From positions 1 through 47,740 of the forward strand of contig CASFYE010000044.1 in the NCBI GenBank assembly GCA_949298925.1: DNA of 47,740 bases, given 5' to 3'. The notes under the pieces were generated by a model. That model saw nothing but the letters and a program-made list of their open reading frames with translations. It did no database searches and was not told the origin of the DNA. The translations under genes were made by a program, and so were the position numbers. Positions 2,854-36,379 of this stretch are shown here, one piece after another. Numbering within the stretch: position 1 is the stretch's first letter; each line of letters opens with the position of its first letter. The DNA comes from an uncultured Bacillota bacterium (GTDB lineage Bacteria; Bacillota; Clostridia; Christensenellales; UBA1242).

Positions 2854-2876
2854 AGGTCCTATGAGGGACCTTTTTG
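2854..2876 (+). terminator. intrinsic terminator
   Basis: AGGTCC(T) at 2854-2860 pairs with (A)GGACCT at 2865-2871 and is followed by TTTTT. Confidence 0.6.
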
Positions 2877-2985: not shown

Positions 2986-5802
2986 ATGTCAGCACAAACC
3001 ATTGTTATTATTTTGGATATCTTATTTTTTGTTTTGCTAGGGGTCGGATTTTTAATAGGTTTTTGGCGTGGTGTTAAAAGGTCTGCGTTGAACATTGCGT
3101 TGACGATAGTATGCATAGTTGTAGCAGGCTTCTTAACTCCGGTTGTGACGAATGCAATTTTAAACATTTCCGTAGAAGAAGGCAGAACATTAAATCAATA
3201 TGTAATTGATTTGGTGATGGAAGAACCAAACATTGCTACACTTGTGAACAGTTCACCTAGCTTTGCTAAACTTTTTGAGGCGCTACCACAATTTGTCTTG
3301 TGCGCTGTCGTGTTTTTGATATTAAATTTGGCGGTTGGGCTTGTTGGTTATGTAATATATAAAATTATTTCAGCTATTGCGTTTAAAAGCAGAAAGAAAG
3401 AAAAAGAGCTTGGTTTAAAAAGAAATCGTTGGGTTGGTGGTGCCGTTGGCGTTTTAAAAACTTTCATTTTTATACTTGTCATTTTTATGCCTTTGACGAG
3501 CCTAGTAAAATTGGCTGATGAGAGCATAGACACTTTGCCTGTGGCACAAGCATCAGAAACCGTTGAAAGTGGAGATGGGCAAAACACGTTGGCAATTCCT
3601 AAGCAACTGACAGACGCGGTTTCAGGGATAAATTCTAGTTTTTTTGGTGTGCTAAATGGAGCTGTCGGGCTTGATGATTTTATTTTTGACGACATATCAA
3701 AATTTGAGGTAGTTGGCGAAAATGTTTATCTTAGAAAAGATTTGAAAACAGGAGTTGAAATTTACAATTCAATTTCAAGCATGGGTATTTCAGACATAAC
3801 CAAATTTTCACAATTAGATTGGAATGAAATGGACAAGATTTATGAAAAAACTACAAGTATGACGATTTACAATTCGATTGTGTTAAATTCGGTGGCAGAA
3901 CTCGTTGAAAATTATGAAAACATTTTTTCGATCTTTCCTGAGCTAGCTGAGTACTCGTCTGTTTTAAATGACGTGCGTGACGCGTTGAAATTAAGTGAAG
4001 ATAAAGCAAAATATTTTGGTGAAGACATTGACAAAATTTATTCAATCTTTTCAAGTCTTGCGAGAGAGGGTTTTATCGATGATTTATTAAGCGCGGGTGA
4101 TACTGAACAAGTTGTTTCATCTTTTGTAAGTCAACACCAACAGTTGACGTCGCAAATTTTAAAAGATTTTACGAATGTTAATATTGTCAAAGATGGCTTT
4201 TCGTCTGCAATTGAAATTGTTATATCAAAAATTGACGGGGGAGAATTCGACAATGTGTTGTCGCAAATTAACACGGACGTTAAAGATTGGGAAAAATTAG
4301 GGCAACAAATAAACAGCGTGTTAGTGAGTTTTAGCGAGCTTTCCGAAAATTTAAAAAATCAAGGAACGTCGATTGGCGAAGTCGTTGGTGATTTGACAGA
4401 AATCTTTGCTTTGAGCGATGTCAACATCGATAGCGTCTTTGAAAGCTTTGGCAAGCTTTTGGATTCGATAGACAATATGGAATTAGCTAAAACCACCGCA
4501 GGAGAAAAACTTCTGCCTCAGGTTTTAGAAACTGTTGGAGTTAAAGATGGAGACCTCTTGGACGTCAAAGAAGAGAATATAAAAACATATCAAGAATTTT
4601 TCAGTTTTATATCAGTGCCAATAAAAAAGATTGTTGAATTAGATGTTAATTCAGCGATTAAAGATGAAGTTGACTTAAATTCTATTTTAACAATTGTTGC
4701 AAATGCAATTTCAGTTGACGAAACTAGTGGGGAGAGAGTTTACTCGTCAACGCTTTCTGATATTATTTTGCCACTATATAAGATTGCCGGTGTGCACGAT
4801 TTAATTTTTAATGGATTGATAGATAAAAGTGCTTCGACTGGGGTGGTAGATTTGTCAATTTTAGAAGAGTCTGGTTATGAAGCCAACTTTGATTTGTGTT
4901 ATCAAAAGTGGAGTTACGACTTGCCTCTTATAAGCCAAGTTTTGTTTGAACTGAATGCTCGCGATTACAATGAAAATCAAACTATGTTGCAATATATTTT
5001 AAGTGGTGGCGACATCAATGAAGTTGTAAAATCACTTGATGACGAGGCGATAGATTTGATTGTTCCACCTATCATGCAGGCCAAGGCGCTTAAACCTCTT
5101 AGAGACAAATTGTCGCAGAGCATACTGGATAAAATAAAAGATGTCGTCGATGAGGGCACGACAGTTTCTTTAAATTTGAATAATGCAACTTACAATTCAA
5201 ACAGCCCCGAAGACCAATCGCAAGAGATTGCGGAGATCGTAAAAGCACTCGTGACAATTTTGAAGCAGGGAGATTTGACTTCGCTTAAAGACATGGACCA
5301 AACTTTGCTTGGAAATTTAATGGAAAAAATAAAAATCAATGCTTATCGTGAAGAAATATATGGCAAGACGGAAGAGGGTGTGTTTAGATCGGTGTTTGAC
5401 GCGTTGATAGGTCAAGCCGAACAAGAATTTGAGGTTTCATTTACGAACGTGTTTAACGTAAAAAAGATTTACGAAGTGGATTTCACCGAAGTGTTTACAC
5501 TCATTCAACTTGCAAGTGAAACCGAAAACGCGTTCGCTGAAGCTTTTAAGGACTTGGCGATATCTGGAAATACAACTGCTGGTGACAGCATTGACACAAT
5601 TGTTGAAGCGATCAAAGTCGAAAGCAATCAAGAACTCGCCGGTCAGATTTTGGAGATCACGTGCAAGTATGACATTCAAGTTGAAGTTGGTGAAGATGAC
5701 AAATTGATTATTCAAGGAAAACTTAATGAATTAGAGGGAAGTGTTGACCAAAGTTTGATTGAGGGCTTAAAGAAATTGTTTGGGGTTTCGACAAATGGCT
5801 GA
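2986..5802 (+). CDS. large membrane protein (938 aa): N-terminal CvpA-like (colicin V production) multi-TM domain fused to a ~750-aa acidic soluble region
   Basis: The N-terminus DILFFVLLGVGFLIGFWRGVKRSALNIALTIVCIVVAGFL resembles the CvpA family, and two further TM segments follow. The rest is Asp/Glu/Leu-rich with no domain I recognise. A GGAGGA RBS precedes the ATG. The stop overlaps the rsmH start. Confidence 0.6.
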   Translation: MSAQTIVIILDILFFVLLGVGFLIGFWRGVKRSALNIALTIVCIVVAGFLTPVVTNAILNISVEEGRTLNQYVIDLVMEEPNIATLVNSSPSFAKLFEALPQFVLCAVVFLILNLAVGLVGYVIYKIISAIAFKSRKKEKELGLKRNRWVGGAVGVLKTFIFILVIFMPLTSLVKLADESIDTLPVAQASETVESGDGQNTLAIPKQLTDAVSGINSSFFGVLNGAVGLDDFIFDDISKFEVVGENVYLRKDLKTGVEIYNSISSMGISDITKFSQLDWNEMDKIYEKTTSMTIYNSIVLNSVAELVENYENIFSIFPELAEYSSVLNDVRDALKLSEDKAKYFGEDIDKIYSIFSSLAREGFIDDLLSAGDTEQVVSSFVSQHQQLTSQILKDFTNVNIVKDGFSSAIEIVISKIDGGEFDNVLSQINTDVKDWEKLGQQINSVLVSFSELSENLKNQGTSIGEVVGDLTEIFALSDVNIDSVFESFGKLLDSIDNMELAKTTAGEKLLPQVLETVGVKDGDLLDVKEENIKTYQEFFSFISVPIKKIVELDVNSAIKDEVDLNSILTIVANAISVDETSGERVYSSTLSDIILPLYKIAGVHDLIFNGLIDKSASTGVVDLSILEESGYEANFDLCYQKWSYDLPLISQVLFELNARDYNENQTMLQYILSGGDINEVVKSLDDEAIDLIVPPIMQAKALKPLRDKLSQSILDKIKDVVDEGTTVSLNLNNATYNSNSPEDQSQEIAEIVKALVTILKQGDLTSLKDMDQTLLGNLMEKIKINAYREEIYGKTEEGVFRSVFDALIGQAEQEFEVSFTNVFNVKKIYEVDFTEVFTLIQLASETENAFAEAFKDLAISGNTTAGDSIDTIVEAIKVESNQELAGQILEITCKYDIQVEVGEDDKLIIQGKLNELEGSVDQSLIEGLKKLFGVSTNG

Positions 5803-6730
5803 GTTTTTACATATACCGGTGCTTTTAAATGAATCAATAGATATGCTGAGAATAAATCCAGGTGGCATTTACGTCGATGCGACTTGCGGTGGAGGAGGGC
5901 ACAGCATAAAGATAGCTGAAAGTCTGTCACAACGTGGCAGGCTTGTTTGCTTTGATCAAGATGAAGAAGCAATCAAAGCGAGCAAGGAAAGGTTGAAGAA
6001 ATTTGAAAACGTTTCGTTTGTCCACTCAAATTTTAAAGATTTAAAAACTGAACTCGCAAAGATAGGCATAACAAAAGTGGACGGTGTTTTGGCCGATCTT
6101 GGAGTTAGCAGTTATCAAATCGACACAGCAGAAAGGGGATTTTCGTTTTTGCATGACGGACCTCTTGATATGAGAATGGATAGACAGCAAGTGTTGAGCG
6201 CTTTCGACGTTGTAAACAATTACAGCGAAGAAAAATTAAAAAGAATTTTGTGGCAGTATGGCGAAGAAGCAAATGCGAGCAATATTGTCAAAGCAATAGT
6301 AAAGGCAAGAAAAATTAAACCTATTGAAACCACTTTTCAATTAAAGGGAATCGTTGAGTCCGCTTTCCCTAAAAAAGTCGTTTTTGGCAAGGGCGGAGTT
6401 ACAAAAAAAACTTTTCAGGCTGTTAGAATAGAGGTGAATGGTGAACTTGAAATTTTAAAATGTTCGGTTGAAAGCTTTGTTGATTTGTTAAAGCCCACAG
6501 GCCGTGTAGCTGTGATAACCTTTCACAGTTTGGAAGATAGAATAGTAAAAAATGTTTTTAAGGAAAAATCGACAGATTGCATTTGCCCTCCTAAAACACC
6601 CGTGTGCATTTGTGGACATAAGGCGGAGGGAAAACTTGTGAACAAAAAACCAATTGTTCCAACAGCGCAAGAAATTGCAACAAATGAACGGAGCAGGTCT
6701 GCAAAACTGAGAGGTTTTGAAAAGTTTTAG
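5795..6730 (+). CDS. rsmH: 16S rRNA (cytosine1402-N4)-methyltransferase RsmH/MraW
   Basis: HIPVLLNESIDML..., the SAM motif DATCGGGGHS, ADLGVSSYQID, PLDMRMD and a C-terminal CICPP..CICG motif are all present. The start was set to the ATG at 5795 (MAEFLHIPVL), which overlaps the upstream TGA (ATGGCTGA). Confidence 0.92.
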   Translation: MAEFLHIPVLLNESIDMLRINPGGIYVDATCGGGGHSIKIAESLSQRGRLVCFDQDEEAIKASKERLKKFENVSFVHSNFKDLKTELAKIGITKVDGVLADLGVSSYQIDTAERGFSFLHDGPLDMRMDRQQVLSAFDVVNNYSEEKLKRILWQYGEEANASNIVKAIVKARKIKPIETTFQLKGIVESAFPKKVVFGKGGVTKKTFQAVRIEVNGELEILKCSVESFVDLLKPTGRVAVITFHSLEDRIVKNVFKEKSTDCICPPKTPVCICGHKAEGKLVNKKPIVPTAQEIATNERSRSAKLRGFEKF

Positions 6731-6804
6731 CGTCGAAAAAGTGACAACAATTGAGTTTTTAAAAATGTCGAAAAATGTCTATTGACCAAGTTTTAAAAAA
6801 AGTG

Positions 6805-6833
6805 TTGAAAAATGCAAAAAAATGTGCTAAAAT
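6805..6833 (+). promoter_or_regulatory. near-consensus extended -10 promoter (TTGAAA-17-TGcTAAAAT)
   Basis: TTGAAA is at 6805-6810, followed by a 17-nt spacer ending in TGC, then TAAAAT at 6828-6833. The predicted +1 falls at about 6840-6842, which is the first base of the structured element at 6841. Confidence 0.6.
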
Positions 6834-6840
6834 AAAAATG

Positions 6841-6919
6841 GCCGAAGCCACTTTCACTGCCGTGAAAGTTGCAAAAACCCTTGCGGGTTTTTGCCCTCGC
6901 AAACGCGAGAGGCTTCGGT
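6841..6919 (+). ncRNA. structured element E1: 79-nt four-way junction (closing stem plus three hairpins), unknown family
   Basis: Hand-folded.
- P1: 6841-6849 pairs with 6911-6919 (8 WC pairs plus a terminal G-U).
- H1: 6850-6857/6862-6869, 8 bp, loop TGCC.
- H2: 6871-6880/6885-6894, 10 bp, loop TTGC.
- H3: 6896-6900/6905-6909, 5 bp, loop AAAC.
The junction linkers are 0-1 nt. Confidence 0.45.
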
Positions 6920-7006
6920 CCATTGACTGCGATCGATTTTGGTCGCAACAAAAAATTTAGGCAAAACGCAAGTAGAAAAAATAAAAATTAATAGGCGGAG
7001 GGAAAT

Positions 7007-8878
7007 ATGTCTGTAAAAGAAAGAATTGCCGAGTTGTTTAAAAGTTCTAAACAAACAGCAATGTCAACACTTAAAAAAGTGGGCATGATCTTTTCGGCAG
7101 TTACGGTCACAACAGCATTAGCTTTTTCTATTGGAGCATGCATACCAGACTCAAATCTAACTGCTGATGATCCTCACACCCCAGGTATTGAAAATCCTGG
7201 AGAGGACGTCCCTGGAATTGACGTTCCTGGGGTTGAAAAGCCAGGGGTTGAAGAGCCAGGAATGGAGGAGCCGAGTCAAGAAATCGTAGTTGGCGATTTT
7301 GTCAATCAAGTGCTTTCAGAAGAAAAACTTCAAAATTACTGCAAGGAAGCTTTTAATGCTAGCCAAATGGAATTTTTAAAGAAAAAATTTCCAGACCTTG
7401 AAAATCCTCAAGCAAGCGGTGAGATAGCACCTTGGAGTAACGTCGGCGAAGAGATGACGCAAGGTGTTGTTTTGGTTAAGAGTGATGCAACAAATGTTTT
7501 GGCATATATGTCGGCAGATTCAGATGTCATCAAAAATTATATGAGCGAAATTGAAGCTTTAATGGGCGGAGATTTAGTGCAAAAAATCCTTGACATTGCT
7601 GGCATTGATGAAAATGCCACAATTAAAGAAAGCGAAAAGGGAGATTTAATCAACAAGCTCGACAGCGCCACTGCACAATACTTGCAGAGTGTTGACAGTT
7701 TGGCGAGCGAACTGACAAATTTGGCAGATTTGATTGAACTTAAACAAATCGCAAACTTTTCTGCAATAGCGGACGCCACAAATAAGTTAAGCACTCTGTT
7801 TGGTGGCGCTGAAAAGATTTGCGTTGGCGAGTTTACTCAGCCAATGCCTTATACGGCTGGTGGGAACATAACAACTGCAAATTGTCAAATGGCAAACGTC
7901 TTCACAGTTGAAAGCGATGGAAGTGTGAAAGCATATGCAGTCACAGTTGAAGAGGGCAAAACCGATTTGAGTGGAAACGTCGATGTCGCCGAAGTGGGCA
8001 GTTTTGCCCATGGTGCAACTGTTGAAAACTTGCCAGCACTTTCTCAGCCAGAAACATCCCAAGAGGTTTCATTCGACTCGCTTTACAACGAGGTGTTTGG
8101 TGAGGGCTACGATCTCGTGCCTTTTGAAACATACTTTGACGAAATGGCTTCAATGGCTTTTGCAGGGACGGCAGAGTATAATATCATGTTCTATGAGTTA
8201 AATGAGCAATCTTTTGTAATGTACGCGGATGCTATATCAACAACAGGTCGAAATGCTTTTGTGGAGGCAACATACAAAGGTGCAAGCTTGCCTGCAATAC
8301 TTGATTATTCCGTTCTTTCGGAAGAAATGAAAGGGTCGGCAAATCTAAAAGATTACTTACAAAGCATTTTTTCAACGAATGGGAAAGTAAGTGCAAATGA
8401 TGTAGAGAGAGTAAAAACAGAATTAAATGTTTACAAAACTAGAACGTCTGCTATAGATCGTATGAAAAAATTTACAAACAGCAAATCGTTTACAGCTCTT
8501 ACACCAATCTCAAACACCACAGCGGACATAAACTTTGACGATTATGCAAAGGAATACACGCCAGAGGGCGCAACACCTATCGCTTGTTATGTGGGAGAGA
8601 TGGGCACCGAAACACTAAATAATACCTTTGGAACAGGCTATGTCCAACGTCTTGCTTACTTAGTTGCCTATCTCGATAGTGAAAGCAAGTTGCATATTAA
8701 AAAAGGAGCGGTAATTGTGCCGTGGTATACAAATTCTACCGATGACTATTCGTATTCATTAGCACTTGGTGAAGACGGCAAAGATTATGTAACTATAGAA
8801 GAAGAAGAAATCTCAACATTAGAAGATCCGATAATATCACCAGAATTATTGCCAAATGAAACAAGTAGAGAATTTTAA
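7007..8878 (+). CDS. acidic lipoprotein (623 aa), unknown function
   Basis: A GGCGGAGGG RBS precedes the start. The signal peptide carries the lipobox SIGAC (Cys45), followed by a PG-rich linker. No domain is recognised. Confidence 0.65.
   Translation: MSVKERIAELFKSSKQTAMSTLKKVGMIFSAVTVTTALAFSIGACIPDSNLTADDPHTPGIENPGEDVPGIDVPGVEKPGVEEPGMEEPSQEIVVGDFVNQVLSEEKLQNYCKEAFNASQMEFLKKKFPDLENPQASGEIAPWSNVGEEMTQGVVLVKSDATNVLAYMSADSDVIKNYMSEIEALMGGDLVQKILDIAGIDENATIKESEKGDLINKLDSATAQYLQSVDSLASELTNLADLIELKQIANFSAIADATNKLSTLFGGAEKICVGEFTQPMPYTAGGNITTANCQMANVFTVESDGSVKAYAVTVEEGKTDLSGNVDVAEVGSFAHGATVENLPALSQPETSQEVSFDSLYNEVFGEGYDLVPFETYFDEMASMAFAGTAEYNIMFYELNEQSFVMYADAISTTGRNAFVEATYKGASLPAILDYSVLSEEMKGSANLKDYLQSIFSTNGKVSANDVERVKTELNVYKTRTSAIDRMKKFTNSKSFTALTPISNTTADINFDDYAKEYTPEGATPIACYVGEMGTETLNNTFGTGYVQRLAYLVAYLDSESKLHIKKGAVIVPWYTNSTDDYSYSLALGEDGKDYVTIEEEEISTLEDPIISPELLPNETSREF
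7181..7273 (+). repeat. six tandem 15-nt (pentapeptide PG[IVEM][ED]x) repeats forming a linker
   Basis: The translation reads PGIEN PGEDV PGIDV PGVEK PGVEE PGMEE P, directly after the lipobox. Confidence 0.7.
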
Positions 8879-8881
8879 AAA

Positions 8882-8903
8882 AGCAGGCAAAAGCCTGCTT
8901 TTT
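8882..8903 (+). terminator. intrinsic terminator
   Basis: AGCAGGC (8882-8888), loop AAAA, GCCTGCT (8893-8899), then TTTTT. Confidence 0.8.
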
Positions 8904-8964
8904 GACTATTAAATTAAAACAAAAAAAGTTTGATTTTTTTGAGAGGATAAGTTATACTAATCAT

Positions 8965-11109
8965 ATGAAAAAGAAATGGATTTCAGTTTTAAGTTTGATT
9001 TTTGTGTTTGTTTTTGCAATCATGTTTTCTGGTTGCATGGGCGTTGACCCGGACAGACTTGACGAGCTTGAAGATCAACTCGAAAATGGTGAGATCACCG
9101 AAGACGAATTCAATGACGCTTTGCAAGAGGAGTCCGACGGCGTAAAGTTGGACGGCGTGCTTGTGCTTCGAAAGCCTCTTAGTTATGATTTTGACAACAA
9201 CGTTGTTGAAAGTGATTATTACAATTCCTTTGCAAGAGATGTGTTAAGAGGACTTTTCGCGACTTATGGTGTAACAAACAATGCAGACATAATATTAGAG
9301 AAACCAGACATTTTTGATTTGTTATTAACCGAAAACGAAGGGAATGAAGAACTAGAAGATTTAAAAGGTAGATATGACTCGAATAAAGACGACTTCGTAG
9401 GCTTTTATGACGCTATTCGTTATCAAATCACAAATGTTGAACCTGTAAAAATAACAATCACGGGTGTTAGTAGTGAAGTAGTGGATAATCCTGATGGCAA
9501 AATCTATAATGGATCAATCACCATTGACGGAATTTACTATTTTTATTCTTACAATGGAAATGTTTTGTCGTTAGAAGACGAGACTGGAACTCTTTACTCA
9601 AGCAGTGGAAATAGTATTAAAGTAAAAGATATTGAATATACCTTTTTGTTCAACACAGAAACGCTTGTGCTTACATTACAATCAGTCGAAAACATAGGCA
9701 CAAAAGTAACTACGGACGATAGTTATGCTTGGAATTGGAGTCTGCCGTATGACCAGGCAAGTTATGAAGCATGGATTTATGCGTATGGAAGTAAGACTTT
9801 AGATGGAAAGGTAGAAGCAACTTTTAACAACAAAGACGCAAATTTTAAATATAATTTTGAAACTTTAGAAAAGTATTATACAGGAATATTTGATAACATT
9901 GATACACCATATCCCTTTAATTCTGCGTTCTATCTCAACGATTTTGTCAATGAGGAGTATGTTACAGCGCTGGAATATGCGATCTATCGAATTGCAATCG
10001 GGTTGACACCAGCAGAGATGACGGTGAGTTATAATGAAACGGGGCTACCTATGCTTTCCGTTGATGGTTTTTCGTCTCAAACCGCACCAGAAGTAAAGAG
10101 CAGTGTTCAAGTTGCCCTTGAAAGCGCAAAGGAAGATTTTTACAAGCTCGGCACATATGTTGGGCTCACGTCAACAGACAAGCAGTTTATTGTGGACTTC
10201 ATTTTGGAAGAGATTATTGGCGAAACTGCATATTCAACCGAGCTTGCGCAAAACACCTTAAACTATGAGGTCATGGTCGAGGCGATAGTAAACTATGCAG
10301 GCACATTGACGACGACGGGCATGACGAGTTATGACGTCGACGAAGAGGGGGGAACGACTTCTGGTGAAGAGCAACAAGACGACGAACCGACATATGTTGG
10401 TGACGCGTTTACTGCGTCGGAGGTGGCACTTTTCCCTTACACAACATTCTTCTCGTCAGCGACATCAGACGATCCATTCGTAAACGTTGGAGGACCATTT
10501 GAATATCAAAGCTTTGTTTTGTTGCCATCGGACGAGCAAGTTGAGATTGGCGACATTTGGCTTGATATGAAATATGATGCTGGCAATGATGGAGACAGCA
10601 TAGTGACTGACGAAACACTTACGATGACGGTAATTTTAAGGTATGTCAAAGTGCAGACCGACGCGACAGGCAATGTGCTTAACAGGGAGTTAAAGGAGAT
10701 AAGGCAAAACATCACCTTAAAGGACGGACCTCACGGAGCAGGAGAGGAAGGATCGTATTTTGAATTTGAACTTGACGCGAAAGAATATTTCGGTGAAACT
10801 GTCAAGATAGGTAAGTTTGCCGTGCCAGATGTTCTTCAACCTGACAAAACGGAAGACAAGACAAACAACGTGGTTACCATTACGGGTGAAACGGATGCCA
10901 GAAAATATTATGAAGTTTTGGAGAGTGGCTTTAACAATGCAGGATCATTTGCAGTGCTAGACAGCGAGAGATTTAACTTTTCATATTTTGAAGTTGCGTT
11001 TGATGTTGAGAAAGAGCCAGGAAATAGGGATAAGAATTATGCGTTCTATTGTTCAATCTTAAACTTGATAGAACCACCAGAATATCCTAACGATCCTGTT
11101 TGGCAATAA
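8965..11109 (+). CDS. acidic lipoprotein (714 aa), unknown function
   Basis: The start was moved to the ATG at 8965 (MKKKWISVLSLIFVFVFAIMFSGC, lipobox FSGC). The ORF-track start at 8902 lies inside the upstream terminator. It contains a module (ITIDGIYYFYSYNG...TLVLTL) resembling repeats in the giant protein. Confidence 0.6.
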   Translation: MKKKWISVLSLIFVFVFAIMFSGCMGVDPDRLDELEDQLENGEITEDEFNDALQEESDGVKLDGVLVLRKPLSYDFDNNVVESDYYNSFARDVLRGLFATYGVTNNADIILEKPDIFDLLLTENEGNEELEDLKGRYDSNKDDFVGFYDAIRYQITNVEPVKITITGVSSEVVDNPDGKIYNGSITIDGIYYFYSYNGNVLSLEDETGTLYSSSGNSIKVKDIEYTFLFNTETLVLTLQSVENIGTKVTTDDSYAWNWSLPYDQASYEAWIYAYGSKTLDGKVEATFNNKDANFKYNFETLEKYYTGIFDNIDTPYPFNSAFYLNDFVNEEYVTALEYAIYRIAIGLTPAEMTVSYNETGLPMLSVDGFSSQTAPEVKSSVQVALESAKEDFYKLGTYVGLTSTDKQFIVDFILEEIIGETAYSTELAQNTLNYEVMVEAIVNYAGTLTTTGMTSYDVDEEGGTTSGEEQQDDEPTYVGDAFTASEVALFPYTTFFSSATSDDPFVNVGGPFEYQSFVLLPSDEQVEIGDIWLDMKYDAGNDGDSIVTDETLTMTVILRYVKVQTDATGNVLNRELKEIRQNITLKDGPHGAGEEGSYFEFELDAKEYFGETVKIGKFAVPDVLQPDKTEDKTNNVVTITGETDARKYYEVLESGFNNAGSFAVLDSERFNFSYFEVAFDVEKEPGNRDKNYAFYCSILNLIEPPEYPNDPVWQ

Positions 11110-18764: not shown

Positions 18765-21700
18765 ATGAAACTAAAAGCACCAAAAACATGGCAAATGGTT
18801 TTGATATTCGTGACCATAATTTTTTTGGCAGTGGGCGGAGGCGTTTTGTACGTCTATTTAAATGATGGCTTCAAGCCAAAAGTTATTTATCCAGAAACTA
18901 TTGATGTGCAAGACTTAGACAATGTCTTAAATTCAACTAGGGCTCAATATGAAGCGACTGAGGATTTTCAATTGACGTTTACTTCTCAAACGGAAGGCGT
19001 CAACAGAAAGGGAATTACTCTTTCGTTTCCTTCGGGCATAGCGGTTACTAGAGATGCAGAAAACGGAACGATTTCCGACGGAGTAATTACAGTTCCAGAA
19101 AAAGTCACGCTTGGGCAAAGCTTTACCGTTTCACTAGTTAAACAAGCGTATGACAAAAACAACAATTTGATTGAAGATTTAAACGATTACAATGCGGAAG
19201 AAGACGGAGCCATTACTTACATAAACAAAGGTGGTGTTTCCAACCTTATCATAACTCCTGAAAGCAACACTGACTATAACAAACAAATCACAATTGCAGT
19301 TGACGTGCCTGTGCTTGAAGTAGAATTAAAATTTGTCGACATCACAACAGGTTTTGAATATGCTCAAGAAGATGGCGCAACCATAATACCAGAAGGCACA
19401 AATTTTGTTGCTAAGCCGATTTTTGTTCCACAGCAAAGCGCTTACATGTTCAGCGATGAAAAAAATTCCAACGTGAGCGCGCAGGACGTGCGTGAAAAAA
19501 GTGTTTACTACACTTTGGGGACAGGCGTCACAGGCATACAGTTAAATCAATCTGATGACGGTGTTTATTTCACTGCATTAGAAGAGGTTTCGCAAGGCAA
19601 CATCGTAAATGCGTTTGCTTTTTCTAGTTCAAAAGATGAACTGGACTTTTTGGCCCAAAACTCGACGTTAGATGGAGTTGCGCTTTACAATCAAGCAATC
19701 AGCTTTTTATCAGCCAGTGATTCGGCAATAAAAAGCGAGGGAAATTTGTCGGTTGTCGAGGCAAATGTTGGGTTGTTTAGCATACTGCAAAACTCTGTCA
19801 GCAACCCTTACGAAATGAGTGTTGACAAGCTGTTTACTATCTTAGCGGGCGGTGACAGTTCGAAAGGCGGTGCTTTGAGCGCCACTATTCAAGACGTTCA
19901 CGGTGCAGATCTTTCCGGCATGATCAGAAACATTGGAATGAGAGTTGTTTCAGCGACAGGAGCAAATGGAGAAAATCTCATTGGCAACATTGTCTTGCGT
20001 GGTGGAAGTGAAAGAGAGGCAAGCAATGGGAATACATATGTTTTGATAAATTCAAACGTTCGTGACTTAAATTTGGCATATTTTGAGTTGTCTTCAAACG
20101 TCGAGTGTGAGCTTCAGCTGGCAATAGCGCTCATCGTTCAGGACGAGGAAGGCTCTTACAATATTTTTGAAGAGGAAAAGACTTTATACGCAAAGGTTTC
20201 GACGCATCAAGAAGATGTCGTTTCATGGGATGCAAGTTGGCAGGACGTTGACGGCATCAACTTGAAGATCATCTACGAAAATGGCCAGCCAGTCCCAGCA
20301 CAATATGGGCAAAACCTGTTTGATGTTGCAAACGTCCCTTCATCAAACGTTTACCAAAGAAAGGTGGTTTTCGCATATGGTGAAAACATCGATGGCAAAA
20401 TAGAATATGACACTGTTGGCAAAGGGACTTATTCTGTAAACGGAAGTTCCACCGAGCTTTATCCTTTGGCGAGTGGCGAACTTATTGCAAATAAAGCCAC
20501 AACATTTTACATAGTGTTTGCCACTGTCAAAACAGACGCTTACAATCAGCCTGTGTTTAATGATGATGGCACGTATAAACTGATTCAAGTTTCGTCAGCT
20601 GTTGCGGTCAATGTTGAAAACAGTTTGCGTGGGATAAAAAATGTTGACATCGAAGTTGGAAACGGAGAAAAGTGGCTTAAATATAATGAAACAACACTTT
20701 CCGCTTACGCGATTCCATCTGGTTCAAACATAGTTGGCAACGTCATTGGCAATGACATTGTCATGACAATTCAAGTAGAAAATGGTGACGAAGAGCTGTT
20801 TATAGAAGAATTTAACAACGGCAACATCACCTTCTTCGCTTCCAAAGACGCAGGTGGCGATGGCGAAAAAATGACAAACATATTTAGGTTTTCATCGCCG
20901 ACTTCAAATGGGGCAGGGACTGGCGAAGTTTCGGTAAACATCGGCATTGAACCAAATTTAAAATTTGCTATTGAAACAGGTGAAAATTATTACATTTTTA
21001 TTGAATACGACAACTCAATTTCTACAGAAAGAAAGATTGCAAATATTGGCGGAGAGGAAATTCAAGATTATATAACGATTTATGATCAACAAACTAAAAC
21101 GATAGAAAGTGAATTAAAGGATAAAGTCCTCAACGTTACTCAAACATTACAGTCAGACGGCACAAGTGAGATAAGCATAACAGGATTGACTGGAACGGAA
21201 AGTTTAGACGAGTTAAATGCTTATTTTCAAGAATATAATGAGACTTATTATCCAAACGGAATAAAAACACTCGACCAATATGGCAGAGAGTTTGAAGGGG
21301 ATTACACAATTTCCTCATCAAACTCAACACTTGTTATGGCAAACAATCTTGACAAATCTTTAAGCTTTGGCAACGGAAGTGGAAATGCAACAGTTACAAT
21401 TAAGTCTGGCAGTGCCACTGTCCGCCTAACTCTTAATGTTACAAGCACAGGCGTTTCAAAAATTTGTGTGTTGGATCAAGGATACGCAGGCACCTCGTCA
21501 GTTTCTTATGTTTATACACCGACATCGGTAGGCGAAGGAAGTGCGGAGGTAGGCGAAGGTAGTGCGGAAATTAAGTTAAAAAACGAAGGCCCAACGAATC
21601 CAAGCACATTAGTAACTGACGGCATATTGACTGTTTATGTTGGGGACAAAATTTATAACTACGATAAATATAAAATAACTCTTGCACCAACATTTTTGTC

Positions 21701-24700
21701 AGAAGTTAATGACGATTTGTGGGACATGATTAGTTATAAAACCTCGTCTTCAATTGGTTGGTCTGCTGCAGGTGCAAAACCAGACAGTAGCACGGAAATT
21801 TATTCATTGCGTGTAAACAATCATTTTGGGAAAGACGTAACTTTGCTTTTCAATGCGCGTAACGACAACAACACATTAAATTTCACCTTTTCGTTTACCA
21901 TTAAAAAGACCGCTGAACTAGAAAGAAACAGTTTAAACGAAGTAAATTATGGTGGAGAAATCACGGGGGTAGAAGGTCACACAGACTCAAACTCAATAGG
22001 TGTTTATGCAGGGTTTGGAATCAACTTAAATGATGAGAATGTAGAAGTTACCAACTATCTTAAAGTGAAAAATGTTAATTGGGGTGCAGTTTTTGAAGAG
22101 GAATATTACATACATAGTGGCGGGGATATAAACAAAACTGAGGCCAATGCAATTGCTACAATAAAAAAAGGCGTGCTCACCTTTAATGATGTCACACAAC
22201 CGACCAATTACAATTTTACGTTGTATGCTGTTAATAAACCAAAAGATGGAACACGGGTTGGAAATTATTACGGCTATTTAATCGAACTTTCATTCACAGT
22301 TTATCCAAACTTAAAAATCAATCCTCAAAACGATTCCGAAATTAGCTTAGCAAGTATTGCTTCTGCTACCAATGGATATAGTTATAGCAATGTTTTTACA
22401 ATTGGAAGAATAACCACCTTAGCGCAAGAGACTGATTCATCTATTGGAACTGTGCCTTTAGATCCAAACAAAAACATAACCGCAGGTGGTTTGATAAGCA
22501 ATTATAAATTTGTTGATGAAAATGCAGGTGGGTTACAATATTTATCTTTAGATGGTAATAATATTGTTAGAACGGAAACCTATTTGTATTACGATAAAAA
22601 CACAACAGGGAAAGAAATCGTTTTATATGCGTATGACGCAAATGGTAATGTGGTCGCTTCAGAAACCTTCAACTTGACCCTTGGTTTAGAAATTAACGAT
22701 TTAAACGAGCTTTTAAAAACAACTGACAATAACAAGGCGATAGTTCGTGCTCAAAAATATGATGGCACACAAATGGCATTAATCACTCAAAACTCAATTG
22801 ATGTTGTGAGAGGTTGGGCAGATTCCGGTCTTACAGCGGAACTGATGGTGGGCGCAAACGGAAGCTTTTATCAACTTACAGGGACAACAGAGAAGAAGTA
22901 CACCATAAGCTTGAATCCAAACGGCCAAGCCATCCGTTGTGACAAAAACACTTATTTAAAATTTAACTTTTCTTCCGGTGAGCTTGATTATGCGACATGG
23001 GACGTTCCAGTCATATTGTCGCAGATAGGAAGCGATTTTCCTGGGGAAGACACAGAGAATAATTTTGATTTGTTTGACGTAATAAACAATGGCATTAAAA
23101 CATCTGTCATAGCTGGCGGAGCATATTCGCTGTTTGATTTAGCAGACATAACAGGTTCAAATATTTCTTTTACTTATTTGGTTGATGGAGAAATTTGCAC
23201 AGACTATGAAACTTCGGTGATAAGTTCGCTGGAAAACGGAATGCTAGTTTTGAAAAATCTTTCAAACAATTGTAAGGATTTGATCAATGGCACGTTGCCT
23301 TTAGAAATTCAAATAACGATGCAAAATGGCGTTTATTCTCAAACATTTGTTTTACATGTTTTGGTTAGCCCAAATGCGACACTTGACAAAGTAAACTATC
23401 CATATGATGGAGCGACGGCAGAATTTTTAACGGTTAAAGGGTCAAAACCAATCGTCTTAAGCGATCCGCACGATAATGGTGAAAAGCGTTTCCCAGACAC
23501 TGCCACTCCAACAGTAGAAGAAAATATAACAAGCACGTTGACACTTTCAGAGTCAAATTACGTAGGTAGCATAACAATAAATTCAAAAGACTACGACGTG
23601 CAATACAATGCCGAAGATGGCGGTTTAACACTGACAAAAGACGGAGAAAACATAAACGGCACCAATGGAAAAATTGTCGTAGAAGGGAAGCAATACACCT
23701 ATTCCTTCGCTGAAAGCACGTTAACTTTGAGTTTGATTGGATTAGGTGATTCAATCTACAGCATAAAACAATTCACAATCAATGGAAATTCATCAGCATA
23801 CGAGGGATTTATTTCTCTTGAAGGGGAAACTTTGACGATAGACGACCAAAGTGGAACCTTGCAAAATGCTACACTTGTTATAGAAAAAAGGTATTCAAAT
23901 TTCTTTGGAGAGTCGCTGGAATACACTTTCATAATCAACAGCACCGATGTTGAATATTTCTTGAATATTGCAAGTGAAACAAGTGGTGACACGGCTTCTG
24001 AGGAAGGCAACGATTGGGTTATAACTCTGGATCGCAACGAAACCAATCACCTATTCTCAATTACAACAAAACAACGAAGTGAGGATGGTGGCGAGAGCAA
24101 CGTTTTGCCAAACGAAGTCACAACAAAATTGGTTGAAGAAAGCAAAGAAGGCTATACATTTGATTTTGAAGATGTCATTGAAAATCCTAAGACTTTGACA
24201 ATTACAACGCCAGTCTTTGTCGAGGCAGACACGGTTATCGACTTGACTTTTGTTGTCAATGACGGACAAGCAGAAATAAAAGTGCGAGTCATCGTTCCAG
24301 CGACCGTGGAAATGGAATGGATCGCTGACACCTCATTACCAGGTGGCAGTGAGTATAGTGTGGCTAATTATTTGATTAAAAACTTGAATAAAGATGGGAC
24401 ATTTAATGATAAGGCATATGTAACTATAAATGACGTTACTTTTACATATGATGATTCTACAAATGCGAAGAAAGGCTACTTAGAATATGATATGAGCAAC
24501 CAAAAAGTTAAAGTTCAACCTATATATCAAAATATTGAACGAGCGACAATAAAAGTTGCATATGCTTATGTTGAAAACATTACTGTTGAAGGTAAAAGCT
24601 ATTTTGTAGTTTATGATATAACAAGCAATTCGTTGATCTTAAAACAGGTGATTAAAAGTAGTGAAGGTTCGATAACGATTGATGACAAAACTTACACAGT

Positions 24701-27700
24701 GGGCACAACGGAAAGCGGTGAGACAACATTGACATATTTAATTGATGGCACACCATCAGGAGAAGAAACATCAAAGACAGGGACAATCATCATAGGCGGT
24801 GCAACATACACCTACACTTACACTGAAACAAATAAAATTACTTTAAGTAAAACTGACGACGAAACTTTTACACGTGAGATTGATCTTTCTATCGCCTCAC
24901 CAATCGTAGAAATAGATAGTAAAACATACAACGTTGAATACATCTCTGACAGCAATTCGTTGACCTTAAAACTCGTGTTTACAAGCAGTCGTGGTTCAAT
25001 AATAATTGATGACAAAACTTACACAGTGGGCATGACGGAAAGCGGTGAGACAACCTTGACATATTCAATTGATGGCACATCATCAGATGGCGCAAATGCA
25101 AAAACAGGGACTATCACCATAGGCGATGAAAATTACACCTACAATTACGAGTCGTCTAAGTTGACATTAACTAAAGAAGGATCAGAACCAATTATCACAT
25201 ATATTCGGACAGGTTACACCGAAAAGACTTTTGACTTTGAACCAAACTTAACTACGGTGTCACAGGGTATAGGGGACGTTTTATCACGCGAAACTGAAAC
25301 AGTGTCTTTAAGAAATCTTTTGGAAAGTTCTGGGACGTCAATAAATTTGGGTGGGGTATATAGCCTTATTGCAGTCAATATTGATGGAAACTTATTTGAT
25401 ATTAGTGCTCCTGATAAAGGCGTGTACGTTCAAGATGACGATTTAAAGATCACTCCAGAATATGTTGGGCAAAACACTCCTACTAGCATAAAGTTTAAAC
25501 TTACTTATACAAAAGGTGATTACACATTTACTACAAACGAAATCGAATTGACGTTTACTATTGTTGCTGCCGCAACATACGAAGTGTCTTATCCAAATCC
25601 TTTTGGCACAACCAAGGATTTGGGTTATGAAAGTTATTCTAAGGAAATCATAGAAGATGATGGTGGTGGAATAAACCTAAACAATCATTTTGGTGGGACA
25701 GCCGATTTTGCACAAGCGGAAAGAATAAAATTTAGCGATGTAAGTCTTGGCGACACCATAACAGAAACTTCTAAGAAATTTTCTGAAATTGCGAACGGCG
25801 TAACCTATACAATCATATCGTTCAGCGGATTTACAAATGATGGGCAACAAATCACAAGTGCAGAAGGCATTCGTGATTCAGGTAAATGGGCAAGCGGAAT
25901 ATTTAAAGTTGCAGGAGGTGTCGAAGTCGCAGAGGGGGCGTCAGTCACTTTTGGTATAACTTATAAAGGAGTTACGGCGCAATACACAGTTTATTTCTTT
26001 AGCACTGTCATTTCCGCAAGCACCAACAACACAATAAACCATGTCACAATTGCTACAGAAAATTATGAAAACATCTATGCTGACAAAGGGGATATTTACG
26101 GCGACGAAGGGAAAACAAACATCTTCGCGAAAAACAGGCTTGTCGAACTTGGCATATTAAAAGACGGAGCCGAGGCGGGGTCTTTGCAAAAAATCTATGC
26201 AAGACCAGAGGGTAAAGATGACACAACAATGTATGAACAACTCGCATCGTTCGTCTTAACTCAAAGCATGATTGACAGAGGAGCCAACATCTTTGTAGAT
26301 ATTGGAATTTTAAATGGCAAGACAATCGGTGGCAAGCCAATTTCAACAGTAGTAGACAATTTACTTGGTGAAGGCTATGAGTTTGTTGTTGGCTCTATAA
26401 ATCAAAATGGCGAATTTGTTGGCTCTACTTCAATTCAATTCATTAGGCAGGCAAGCCGTGTTGAATACAAATACAGACTGTCAAATGGAAGCACACAGTT
26501 GATTAACAGCGAAACCTTAATTGTTTGTGAAGAAGAAAAACTGGCTGTAAATGAACCAAGCAAATTTGAAAATAATGAAACAGCGACCTTTAATGTCACT
26601 TACAAAATTACAGAGGGTGGTATAGAAAAAGGAACGATAACTTACAAACTTAAAAAAGTGCTTGACATCGAGGCACAATACGCTTGGTCATCGGCCAATA
26701 AAACAGTTATTGAAATCGAAACCAACAAAATCAACACCTACACAATCGTAAAAGAAATGGGAATTCGCCACCCATCGACTGGCGAAATGCTGTCGGCTGA
26801 CAATATTGGAAACGCCGAAATAGATTTAACTGTTGTAAACACTAAAGACAATACATTTGATTGGAACGATATTGATGGGGGGTGGCCAGATGGCGTTACG
26901 GAAAACGATTTTGTTTATCAAACGGAAGCTGGTGATGACTATTTAAGCTTTACACCTATCAAAAACAGCGAAGAAAAAATCTATGACTACTACTTGTTCG
27001 GTGAAGGAGCCGACAATGATGGAAGTTACGTCCTTTTAAAACTGAATTATATTGCAGGAGGCACAGACCAAACTTTCTATTTCGTAGTCAAGTTGATTCC
27101 TGATTACAACGTTACGATTGGAGGAGTGCAAGTGGCTGTTCCTGGGGTGGTTACTGACGGAGTGGCTACAAATGAGGAGAGCCCTTACAATTTCGTGCCA
27201 GACGGTGAAAGTAATTTCAATATTGCAACAAACAGTGATTCAATCGTATCCTTTGTTAGATCAAACTGGGACAGCAGTAACATTGCAAAAAGCTTGACTT
27301 ATAAGTTGACAGTGAAAGATGCAGGGAATGGCTACAATGAAGCAAGTAATATCGCAAAATTGAATATAGGTTCTACATGGAAAAAACAAGAAAATGCTCA
27401 GTCTGGTTCTGTTGCAGTCGGTTCAGGCGATGTCGCCGCTGTCGGCAACATTTACACATGGAAAAACGCTAGTGGATCAACGAGTGAACTAAAATTGGTG
27501 CCTTCATTAATCGCGTTTGGACAGAAGATGTATATGCTTGAAATAACCAACTCATGGGGATTTAAAATAGAGTTTTACTTCACGCTTTCCTCTCCAACAG
27601 CTCAAAATCCTGTCATCAGCACGGCTTATTCTGATGCAACATTTACTGAAGGTGAAAATTTTGACGTTGGCGTAATTTATGATAAGATTGTTGCAACACC

Positions 27701-29528: not shown

Positions 29529-29610
29529 ATGACAAAAGTGCCCGCATTACGCGGGCGCTTCGCCGAAAGGCAAAGCAAAACTTTTCGTTAGAAAAGGTTA
29601 CTTTTGTCAT
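29529..29610 (+). ncRNA. structured element E2: 82-nt four-way junction, same architecture as E1
   Basis: Hand-folded.
- P1: 29529-29539 pairs with 29600-29610, 11 bp.
- H1: 29540-29545/29551-29556, 6 bp, loop ATTAC.
- H2: 29557-29564/29569-29576, 8 positions with one C/A mismatch, loop GAAA.
- H3: 29581-29586/29591-29596, 6 bp, loop GTTA.
It starts 3 nt after the giant-gene stop and ends 21 nt before the cls start. Confidence 0.45.
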
Positions 29611-31100: not shown

Positions 31101-31134
31101 AAAAAAAACTTTGCCATTTGGCAAAGTTTTATTT
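31101..31134. terminator. bidirectional intrinsic terminator between convergent cls and the nucleoside hydrolase gene
   Basis: ACTTTGCCA (31108-31116), loop TT, TGGCAAAGT (31119-31127). It is flanked by an A-run on the left and a T-run on the right. Confidence 0.8.
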
Positions 31135-33821: not shown

Positions 33822-34982
33822 TTATCTTTGGTCGCTTATATTTGCCATACTGTTGTTTCTTTGCAAATCTGAAACAGAATCATAAGGAGCTGACGTTGTG
33901 GTTCCAGCTAAGAGCGCGATGTCCACAGCATTTGCAGGGCTTCCCCATGAGTTGCCAGAAAACTGCATGAGCGCTTGGTCAACAACCCAACCTCGTGTGT
34001 TAAAAACGACATTGTGAGTTATATATCCTGTTGAGTTTGGATTTAAATAACCTGCTTGTCGTAATGAGTAAAAAATGTTGCCATCTATCCAGCTGTTTTG
34101 TGTTGCTCCCTGTGTTACGACACCTCTATTCGTTACCCATGTGTCAGAGCTACCAGATTGTTCCGGTCCAAACAAGATGTTGTTTCTTATAATGTTGTTG
34201 TTGCCTCCAATTTGTATAAATTCAGTTGGGTAAGGGTTGTTGCTCGTAAACGTTAATCCATAAACTTCATTGCTATCACCACTTACTAGCATACCAACAA
34301 CATTTGATTGAAGCATTATTATAGAATTTGGTTTTCCTATAAGCGAAATTCCACTTTTGTTCAAATTTAAAGTTGTAGAAATGTCATATACTCCCTCTTC
34401 TACTATAATATATCCATTATCTTCAACTTGATTTATTGCATCTGAAATCGTGGGCAGAGGATTTGCTTGAGTACCATCTCCTCCAACATTGCCACTTCTT
34501 ACAAAAAGCAAAGAATTGTTGACCCCCAAAGTTCCAGTTGGCCCGGTTGGGCCTATCTCTCCAGTAGCACCTGTCGGTCCAGTCGGTCCCGTTGGACCGG
34601 TTGCACCAGTATCACCCGCAATACCGGCTGGTCCTGTTGCTCCTGTAGCTCCAGTAGCACCAGTAACACCGGTAGCGCCTGTCGGTCCAGTTGCTCCGAT
34701 TAAACCTTGCAAACCTCTCTCGCCAGTTGCACCAGTCGCACCTGTTGGACCTGGCAAACCGTTTTCTCCACTAGCTCCGGTAGGACCTGTTGCTCCAGTA
34801 GGACCAGTTGGTCCGGTCGGTCCCGTTGGACCGGTTGCACCAGCAAAACCTTGCAAACCTCTCTCGCCGGTTGCTCCGGTAGGACCTGTTGCTCCTGGTG
34901 GGCCTTGAATGCTTAATCCAGGGATAGTCTTTACTATTATTCTAGTTTGTGGGTATTTATAAAAATGGTTGCAAAAAAACAT
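33822..34982 (-). CDS. collagen-like triple-helix repeat protein with a C-terminal right-handed beta-helix (pectin-lyase-fold-like) domain
   Basis: It has a short N-terminus, 42 uninterrupted G-X-Y triplets (GPT/GAT rich), then [11 protein letters not shown]...WIDGNIFYS...[15 protein letters not shown], which is a parallel beta-helix repeat signature. An AGGAGG RBS precedes the start. Confidence 0.8.
34527..34904 (-). repeat. collagen G-X-Y coding repeat (42 triplets)
   Basis: A 9-nt periodic GGNCCNACN-type repeat with an internal duplication ([10 protein letters not shown] appears twice). It generates spurious long antisense ORFs. Confidence 0.9.
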
Positions 34983-36258: not shown

Positions 36259-36287
36259 ATTATATCATGTTTTTTAATATTTTGCAA
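36259..36287 (-). promoter_or_regulatory. promoter of tRNA-Gly (TTGCAA-17-TATAAT)
   Basis: On the minus strand, TTGCAA corresponds to plus 36282-36287, followed by a 17-nt spacer, and TATAAT to plus 36259-36264. This is about 18 nt upstream of the tRNA 5' end. Confidence 0.6.
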
Positions 36288-36300
36288 GAAAAATAAGAGG

Positions 36301-36379
36301 GAGGACGGCGCTGTGCAGAACATGCACAGCACGCGCAAAAGCGCGTTGCAAATTTTTTTAAAATTTGCTTGCCGTCCTC
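36301..36379 (-). ncRNA. structured element E3: 79-nt four-way junction, same architecture as E1/E2 (strand uncertain)
   Basis: Hand-folded.
- P1: 36301-36309 pairs with 36371-36379, 9 bp.
- H1: 36310-36317/36323-36330, 8 bp, loop GAACA.
- H2: 36331-36336/36341-36346, 6 bp, loop AAAA.
- H3: 36348-36355/36361-36368, 8 bp, loop TTTTA.
All pairs are Watson-Crick. It lies 24 nt downstream of the uvrC stop (minus strand) and upstream of the tRNA-Gly promoter. Confidence 0.45.

Follow-up and report, generated by a model that had tools for sequence, protein, structure and literature searches.

Branched three-hairpin junctions at gene boundaries in an uncultured lineage of Clostridia

What does a compact, nearly fully paired four-way junction do directly behind a promoter, and why do two unrelated intergenic sequences on the same contig fold into the same shape? 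These questions are raised by a contig of an uncultured Bacillota bacterium (Clostridia; Christensenellales; UBA1242), CASFYE010000044.1 of assembly GCA_949298925.1, whose full 47,740 nucleotides (nt) are referred to here as the window. A preliminary description, made from the sequence alone, had reported a perfect four-way junction, E1, in front of a lipoprotein-like gene and two sites of the same layout, E2 and E3. Hairpins at gene ends are known as a kind. New here is the branched, near-perfectly paired four-way junction, which has no U-tract and is lineage-restricted.

Three junctions of one layout and their copies in related genomes

The pairings of E1 derived by hand were reproduced exactly by RNAfold. 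A closing stem of 9 bp, or 10 bp including G6840-C6920, encloses three hairpins, with stems of 8, 10 and 5 bp and 4-nt loops, joined by linkers of 0-1 nt. The folding energy was -46.5 kcal/mol (z = -6.97), a stability that none among 200 dinucleotide shuffles reached, and the structure made up 67% of the ensemble. E2 (z = -7.4) and E3 (z = -9.7) have a topology identical to that of E1, so that the trio stands as first described. In a sliding 90-nt scan of the 47.7 kb window (37% GC) the three elements took ranks 1-3 by folding energy, far ahead of the rest. The strongest local folds after them were the GC-rich repeats of a gene for a collagen triple-helix repeat protein (33822-34982, minus strand, 386 aa).

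Blastn-short found no alignable sequence in common between E1, E2 and E3, in line with what had been judged by eye. Strictly, the pairing falls short of perfect: 6841/6919 in E1 is a G.U pair, and hairpin 2 of E2 contains a C/A mismatch. Of the "perfect" junction, the architecture was thus retained and the strict perfection was not. The opposite strands of all three elements fold about equally well, and the E1 fold also forms as single-stranded DNA (ssDNA); folding alone is therefore silent on which strand or which nucleic acid matters. The elements are:

6840-6920, plus strand: E1 four-way junction, closing stem 6840-6849/6911-6920 (10 bp, one G.U)
6850-6869, plus strand: E1 hairpin 1, 8 bp, loop TGCC
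6871-6894, plus strand: E1 hairpin 2, 10 bp, loop TTGC
6896-6909, plus strand: E1 hairpin 3, 5 bp, loop AAAC
29529-29610, plus strand: E2 four-way junction, 3 nt past the TAA stop of a 3586-aa open reading frame (ORF)
36301-36379, minus strand: E3 four-way junction, 24 nt past the uvrC stop, on the uvrC strand

Loci from sister lineages (numbered with the prefix L) were fetched with RsmH, UvrC, GyrB and the lipoprotein as anchors. RNAfold and a topology filter were run over ~1.9 Mb in place of a structure-only covariance model. To pass the filter, a site needed 5 bp or more in its closing stem, two or more hairpins inside it, 70% or more of its bases paired and a folding energy no higher than -0.40 kcal/mol per nt; per-element shuffles and ~1.3 Mb of loci from other Clostridia served as controls. 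Further three-hairpin junctions, for which the preliminary description had proposed to scan, were found in related genomes. The tally came to nine loci in six lineages, with seven unrelated sequences plus orthologs, and every junction had exactly three hairpins. Besides the three in the window, the carriers are:

L001 and L106: orthologs of E1, recovered by the topology filter
L084:11829-11911: ortholog of E3 in a ~90%-UvrC species, 10 nt past the uvrC stop
L091:11815-11914: junction of unrelated sequence in a 75% species, 100 nt, 78% GC, dG -77.8, 8 nt past the uvrC stop
L011: junction between a 1254-aa ORF, whose stop lies 9 nt before it, and rsmH, 90 nt after it
L095: junction in the uvrD-hisS spacer, 341 nt past the stop
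L103:80-211 and L103:385-484: two junctions 170 nt apart, one with a ~32-bp perfect closing stem

Across the copies, length ranges from 79 to 135 nt, GC content from 42 to 78%, folding energy from -40 to -86 kcal/mol and the closing stem from 9 to 32 bp. No loop nucleotides are conserved across the junctions. Measured from the stop codon of the same-strand gene, the elements start after 3 (E2), 8 (L091), 9 (L011), 10 (L084) and 24 nt (E3), and of the five independent elements for which the retrieved sequence includes the upstream gene, four start 3-25 nt past its stop. The promoter-proximal setting emphasized at the outset holds for E1, whereas most copies lie just past stop codons. When 470 kb of clade DNA was surveyed under relaxed criteria, nothing but loose folds in coding regions and one genuine tRNA was added, and the ~1.3 Mb of more distant Clostridia loci held essentially no junction at low GC. 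A metagenome scan with UvrC returned 7 loci only.

The two L103 copies have hairpin modules in common in a different order (hairpin 2 to hairpin 2, 20/22 nt; hairpin 1 of the first to hairpin 3 of the second), which suggests a local duplication and reshuffling of hairpin units. At the start of this contig (L103:1-45) a Nextera adapter remnant, TCGTCGGCAGCGTCAGATGTGTATAAGAGACAG, is an assembly artefact. Of 8 independent elements, 7 contain the word TTTTGC/GCAAAA (p about 3e-6, uncorrected). As a shared motif it was judged compositional, since its structural position varies and it fits the A-run/GC-core hairpin style of the clade; it may be a weak shared recognition word.

Conservation of pairing and the origin of E2

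E3 and its ortholog in L084 are the only homologous junction pair that has diverged. Between them, 1 of 64 stem bases was substituted and 10 of 15 unpaired bases were changed (Fisher p = 2e-8). The sole stem substitution turns A-U into G.U on the uvrC-sense strand, and the loops changed from TTTT to GCTT and from TGTTC to AAATAA. One base pair of the closing stem was gained in L084 relative to E3 by a two-sided indel (A in the 5' arm, T in the 3' arm), and hairpin 1 of L084 is two A-T pairs longer. On this one comparison of sequences, the pattern is evidence for selection on pairing.

Over all elements, mismatches arising in a single arm gave 8 G.U and 2 A.C on the gene-sense strand (one-sided p = 0.055). 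In L011, whose copy contains three G.U pairs, the folding energy is -48.2 kcal/mol in sense and -38.3 kcal/mol in antisense. The asymmetry and this strand difference only weakly favour a role at the RNA level on the transcribed strand. The idea of one architecture in unrelated sequences is strengthened by the additional three-hairpin junctions of the relatives and by the stem-specific conservation of E3 and L084, and the choice between RNA and ssDNA is only weakly resolved by the 8:2 ratio.

E2 ends 10 nt before the GGAGG Shine-Dalgarno sequence of a cls-like (cardiolipin-synthase-like) gene and 21 nt before its TTG start (29632); the sequence after it is AGGGCGG. In L091 and L094 the gap between the giant ORF and cls holds a canonical terminator, e.g. 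GAAAATGTCAAAGC-AAAT-GCTTTGGCATTTTT, flagged on the sense strand by the terminator scan, and L095 has a homologous sequence in which the opposite strand only is flagged. The E2 closing stem ATGACAAAAG/CTTTTGTCAT aligns with the terminator stem ATGTCAAAG/CTTTGGCAT of the relatives at an equal distance from the same stop codon, and the alignment includes a two-sided change from U.G to A-U. In the window, ~60 nt with three hairpins stand in place of a 4-7-nt loop. From the homology of the stem, its position and the replacement of the loop, E2 is, by this alignment, an ordinary terminator hairpin whose loop has grown into a three-hairpin junction. The T-tract is gone and there is no usable -10. The transcription units of the giant ORF and cls are probably fused in the window.

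In the relatives, the 3' arm of the terminator, TTGGCA, is also the -35 element of a cls promoter, TTGGCA-16/17-TATAAT (L091:1774-1828, L094:1182-1231, L095:1746-1790), and the terminator stem is conserved across lineages because of this double use. The giant ORF itself (18765-29525) encodes 3586 aa with no Pfam domain on record; it has 3155-3651 aa in the relatives and always adjoins cls.

E3 is followed by CCUCUUAUUUUUCUU, and its downstream stretch reads CCTCTTATTTTT, in which a U-run begins 6 nt past the stem. A separate promoter lies between E3 and a tRNA gene:

36259-36287, minus strand: tRNA-Gly promoter TTGCAA-17-TGaTATAAT

Setting and conservation of E1

The following features surround E1:

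5780-6730, plus strand: rsmH (MraW methylase), stop 109 nt upstream of E1
6805-6833, plus strand: sigma-70-type promoter TTGAAA-17 nt-TAAAAT with TG extension (TTGAAA-17-TGcTAAAAT), 10/12 match
6928-6947, plus strand: simple 8-bp second leader hairpin with no U-tract behind it
6994-7009, plus strand: Shine-Dalgarno sequence GGCGGAGGG and ATG of the lipoprotein-like ORF, unpaired when E1 is folded
7007-8878, plus strand: lipoprotein-like ORF, 623 aa, no Pfam match; a mosaic gene with a 5' block identical between species

The promoter is the only promoter-like site within 6600-7100, and its hexamers are kept in L001 and L106. The predicted start, G6840/G6841, coincides with the first paired bases of the closing stem, which would leave 0-1 unpaired 5' nucleotides. 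The promoter scan thus upholds the near-consensus promoter that had been placed so as to start transcription on the first nucleotides of E1. No canonical terminator was found between the rsmH stop and E1, and the scan detected no terminator-like site or U-tract after E1, where the sequence is CATTGACT. When the full 191-nt leader was folded, E1 was unchanged and the Shine-Dalgarno sequence was free. A riboswitch or attenuator was ruled out on these grounds: E1 accounts for 67% of its ensemble, is stable in the full leader, leaves the Shine-Dalgarno sequence untouched and showed no alternative fold. An invertible promoter switch was ruled out as well, as the 10-bp inverted repeats do not enclose the promoter, the segment between them is only 61 bp and no invertase is nearby.

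Direct repeats, GTCGAAAAA twice and AGTTTTTAAAAATGT-like words three times, lie at 6732-6825, upstream of and overlapping the E1 promoter. One repeat unit is removed by a 33-nt indel relative to L001. They may act as operators or in a UP-like manner.

Identity between the window and L001 is 75-85% in rsmH and the majority of the flanking genes, and ~100% in the 340-nt block at 6830-7170. The lipoprotein-like gene alternates between blocks of ~100% and ~55% identity, a pattern typical of surface-protein genes that recombine. Since E1 lies inside such a recombined identical block, its structure cannot be taken as the reason for its conservation. Differences among the three E1 orthologs consist of a G.U/A-U change, a single loop base and a G-to-A change with no compensation. 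Homologs of the lipoprotein gene at a greater distance (~45% identity) are preceded by another leader, which has no junction. Two other samples of the species in the window are 100% identical, which makes covariation at strain level impossible.

Both lipoprotein-like genes of the region (7007-11109, compared with L001:11190-15400) are mosaic, with ~100% blocks alternating with blocks of ~50-60%. Their family is small (42 proteins) and lineage-restricted, and relative to L004-L009 the gene pair is an insertion between rsmH and a PBP gene. In L107-L111 (around 4000-8500) a distant homolog stands beside an RVT_1 reverse-transcriptase gene and a GmrSD-type gene, and in L111 an rve integrase fragment is inserted upstream of it. 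Past the right end of the window, the source contig carries an island that encodes a large serine recombinase and a protein of the T5orf172 type (L096:2076-9847); a KwaA-like gene, an Apyc1-like metallo-beta-lactamase and a fusion of NT5C and nucleoside hydrolase lie beside gyrB in this region. The island is probably a defence or mobile region.

Proposed role and the alternatives to it

We infer, at a probability of roughly 45%, that E1, E2 and E3 are lineage-restricted cis-acting RNA elements, defined by structure only, which stand at transcript or cistron boundaries as barriers to nucleases or ribosomes, with E1 as a 5'-terminal stabiliser. The junctions look like an elaborated form of the hairpins that mark or protect mRNA ends. 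Each would form a compact, fully paired block that is hard to enter for exonucleases and non-translating ribosomes. In a 3' or intercistronic position, as in E2, E3 and the copies of relatives, such a block would fix and protect the 3' end of the upstream mRNA and insulate the next gene from non-translating ribosomes or read-through effects. At the 5' end of the lipoprotein-operon mRNA, E1 would offer no single-stranded entry for RppH and RNase J-type decay, and it may also form the 3' boundary of rsmH read-through transcripts. The elements would be analogous, not homologous, arising locally and then being held by selection on pairing, and E2 is at least one case of birth by loop expansion of an ordinary terminator hairpin. 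RppH of B. subtilis requires at least 2 unpaired 5' nucleotides (PMC3997798), stable structures just past stop codons reportedly insulate translation (PMC7518266), and 3' stem-loops are found at both Rho-independent and Rho-dependent transcript ends (PMC13613805).

By analogy, the junctions would work most like terminator or 3'-stabiliser hairpins and 5'-terminal stabiliser stem-loops. With intrinsic terminators and 3'-end stem-loops they share dependence on structure, unrelated sequences, GC-clamped stems flanked by A/T runs, positions just past stop codons, local origin and turnover and, in E2, a homologous stem; unlike these, they are branched, have no adjacent U-tract and, in E1, sit at a predicted transcript 5' end. 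E1 resembles 5'-terminal stabilisers (the E. coli ompA and papA leaders, and those of B. subtilis) in the 0-1 unpaired 5' nucleotides that its predicted start would leave, the property that blocks RppH and 5'-end-dependent decay. Known stabilisers are single hairpins, however, whereas E1 is an 81-nt four-way junction with sister elements at 3' ends. Like the ribosome termination structure (RTS; PMC7518266), a proposed insulator against re-initiation, most of the junctions place a stable structure right past the stop codon, but the RTS is a statistical tendency to modest local structure, and the junctions are discrete, with 80-135 nt and -40 to -86 kcal/mol; nor are E1 and L095 stop-proximal.

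Most copies lie just past stops and E2 comes from a terminator hairpin; the class thus has the features of terminator or stabiliser hairpins, analogous structures of repeated origin, and not those of a homologous family of RNA genes built around a ligand or catalytic core.

Several points weigh against this reading. E1 (109 nt) and L095 (341 nt) are not close to a stop codon, and the junction after uvrC is absent at the orthologous sites in L087, L089 and L094, so the element is dispensable. The 340-nt identical block takes in not only the promoter-proximal leader but also unstructured untranslated sequence and the signal-peptide coding region. In L106 the G-to-A change opens the top of hairpin 2 (dG -39.3) with no compensation, and no compensatory change, for which the preliminary description had proposed to look, was found among the three near-identical E1 orthologs. 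Both strands and DNA fold almost equally well. Transcription through the elements, the acting strand and the barrier function have all to be assumed. Finally, a simple hairpin would be enough as a nuclease barrier, and the model gives no reason for exactly three hairpins.

That number would be accounted for if a perfect RNA or DNA four-way junction were read by a dedicated factor of the clade, e.g. a junction-binding protein or nuclease, which would set transcript boundaries or mRNA fate, the junctions being a hitherto undescribed class of shape-specific elements born by terminator-loop expansion and hairpin-module shuffling. A factor reading shape would explain exactly three hairpins whatever the sequence, the length (79-135 nt) or the GC content (42-78%). 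We regard this possibility as doubtful.

The junctions might instead be unconventional terminators, in which the closing stem is the terminator hairpin, the inner hairpins hold its arms and upstream transcription ends there, possibly aided by a factor. Five loci directly past stop codons, the U-rich stretches after E3 and L084, and the replacement of a canonical terminator by E2, which inherits its stem, would all fit. Yet in no element does a U-tract lie within 0-2 nt of the stem, and the sense-strand scan, which asks for a U-tract 0-2 nt from the hairpin with at least 5 U in 8, called none of E1, E2 and E3. Because the ancestral T-tract and downstream promoter are missing at E2, a transcript end there would leave cls silent, and termination at E1, directly behind its own promoter, would abort every transcript. 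L091 has an extra AT-rich hairpin and T7 behind its junction. As had been stated before, ordinary hairpin and U-tract terminators are present elsewhere in the window (2854-2871, 31105-31130, 36119-36085 and 42742-42722), which makes the junctions a distinct class and not the organism's normal terminator. Taken together, we consider termination unlikely as their function.

A role confined to DNA is likewise improbable. The elements would then be nested palindromes, produced and kept perfect when the template switches within a strand (quasipalindrome correction), or else sites at which a DNA-binding or recombination protein acts on ssDNA or a cruciform. Nearly all pairs are Watson-Crick, which suits such a view as well as the equal folding of both strands and of ssDNA does. 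One template-switch event could account for the paired indel in the closing stem of E3 and L084, the shuffled modules of the L103 copies suggest local DNA duplication, and E1 lies at the edge of an inserted, mosaic gene block. The 8:2 ratio of G.U to A.C and the 10 kcal/mol by which the L011 copy folds better in sense speak for the transcribed strand, however, and placement on the gene strand just past stops, always with three hairpins, is unexpected for a mutational by-product. Among the annotated neighbours of the window's elements there is no recombinase, transposase, integrase or reverse transcriptase, and neither target-site duplications nor repeated copies were found.

Still less probable is a role as processing signals, in which the closing stem stacked coaxially on one hairpin (about 17-40 bp) would be an RNase III-type site for cutting polycistronic transcripts, by analogy with phage T7 early mRNA. 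E2 is intercistronic, with the Shine-Dalgarno sequence 10 nt past its closing stem, the closing stems measure 9-32 bp, and perfect junctions permit coaxial stacks of about two helical turns. Cleavage would bring no obvious gain for E1 at a 5' end, though, and the internal loops and sequence boxes of known RNase III sites appear to be lacking in these elements.

It is also very unlikely that E1 encodes a small RNA of its own or serves as scaffold for a junction-specific protein, even with a strong promoter of its own, a start at the first paired base and a fixed shape over unrelated sequences that suggests shape recognition. The small RNA proposed initially as one option finds no support as a discrete molecule: no terminator or U-tract follows E1, and the 166-nt leader continues unbroken into the Shine-Dalgarno sequence and ORF. 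The other copies have no promoters and lie in operon contexts, and loop nucleotides are not conserved.

At gathering thresholds, Rfam matched only two tRNAs in the window, and under permissive settings (E <= 10, per element) the best score was 21.8 bits against a gathering threshold of 94 (RefA1), with all others at 21 or below and none within 70 bits of its threshold; no known family was thus found. The junctions recall the tRNA cloverleaf in having a closing stem and three hairpins in ~80 nt, and the topology filter caught a real tRNA, but their arms are 5-13 bp and their loops 3-6 nt, with no D-, anticodon or T-loop features. A tRNA or pseudo-tRNA was ruled out, in agreement with the earlier view, by ARAGORN, which found tRNA-Arg and tRNA-Gly only in the window, and by Rfam, which gave no tRNA match on the elements at E <= 10.

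REP/BIME, BOX, RUP and Correia repeats are likewise intergenic, often just 3' of genes, with hairpins that can stabilise upstream mRNA, and BIMEs are composed of hairpin modules in a mosaic, which also seems true of the two L103 copies. Those repeats are multi-copy with a common sequence per genome, whereas the junctions share none with one another and do not recur in the 1.9 Mb of related DNA. By blastn-short over ~1.7 Mb of related loci, elements and single hairpins recurred only at orthologous positions, apart from the module sharing in L103. No target-site duplications or flanking direct repeats were found at any element, though the closing stems could pass as terminal inverted repeats. 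REP-, BIME- or MITE-type repeats were therefore ruled out, as the preliminary description had argued. An origin of E1 from a phage or plasmid was rejected, as blastn gave no match in phage and plasmid collections. Integron attC sites also keep structure over sequence, lie right past the stop of the preceding ORF and can have branched tips, but the junctions have no R''/R' core sites, extrahelical bases, unpaired central spacer or nearby integrase. Core sites of the form RYYYAAC ... GTTRRRY were not found at the closing-stem ends (GGCCGAAGCC/GGCTTCGGTC, ATGACAAAAGT/ACTTTTGTCAT and GAGGACGGC/GCCGTCCTC).

Gene-end hairpins are usually thought of as simple stem-loops. The repeated occurrence of branched junctions suggests an unrecognised constraint on the protection or insulation of transcript ends in uncultured gut Clostridia, or a factor that reads their shape. 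E2 shows a concrete evolutionary route, on which the loop of a canonical terminator developed into three hairpins, the U-tract and downstream promoter disappeared and two transcription units were probably joined. Such elements would escape terminator predictors and homology-based RNA annotation. If functional, they would be compact, sequence-independent insulator or stabiliser parts.

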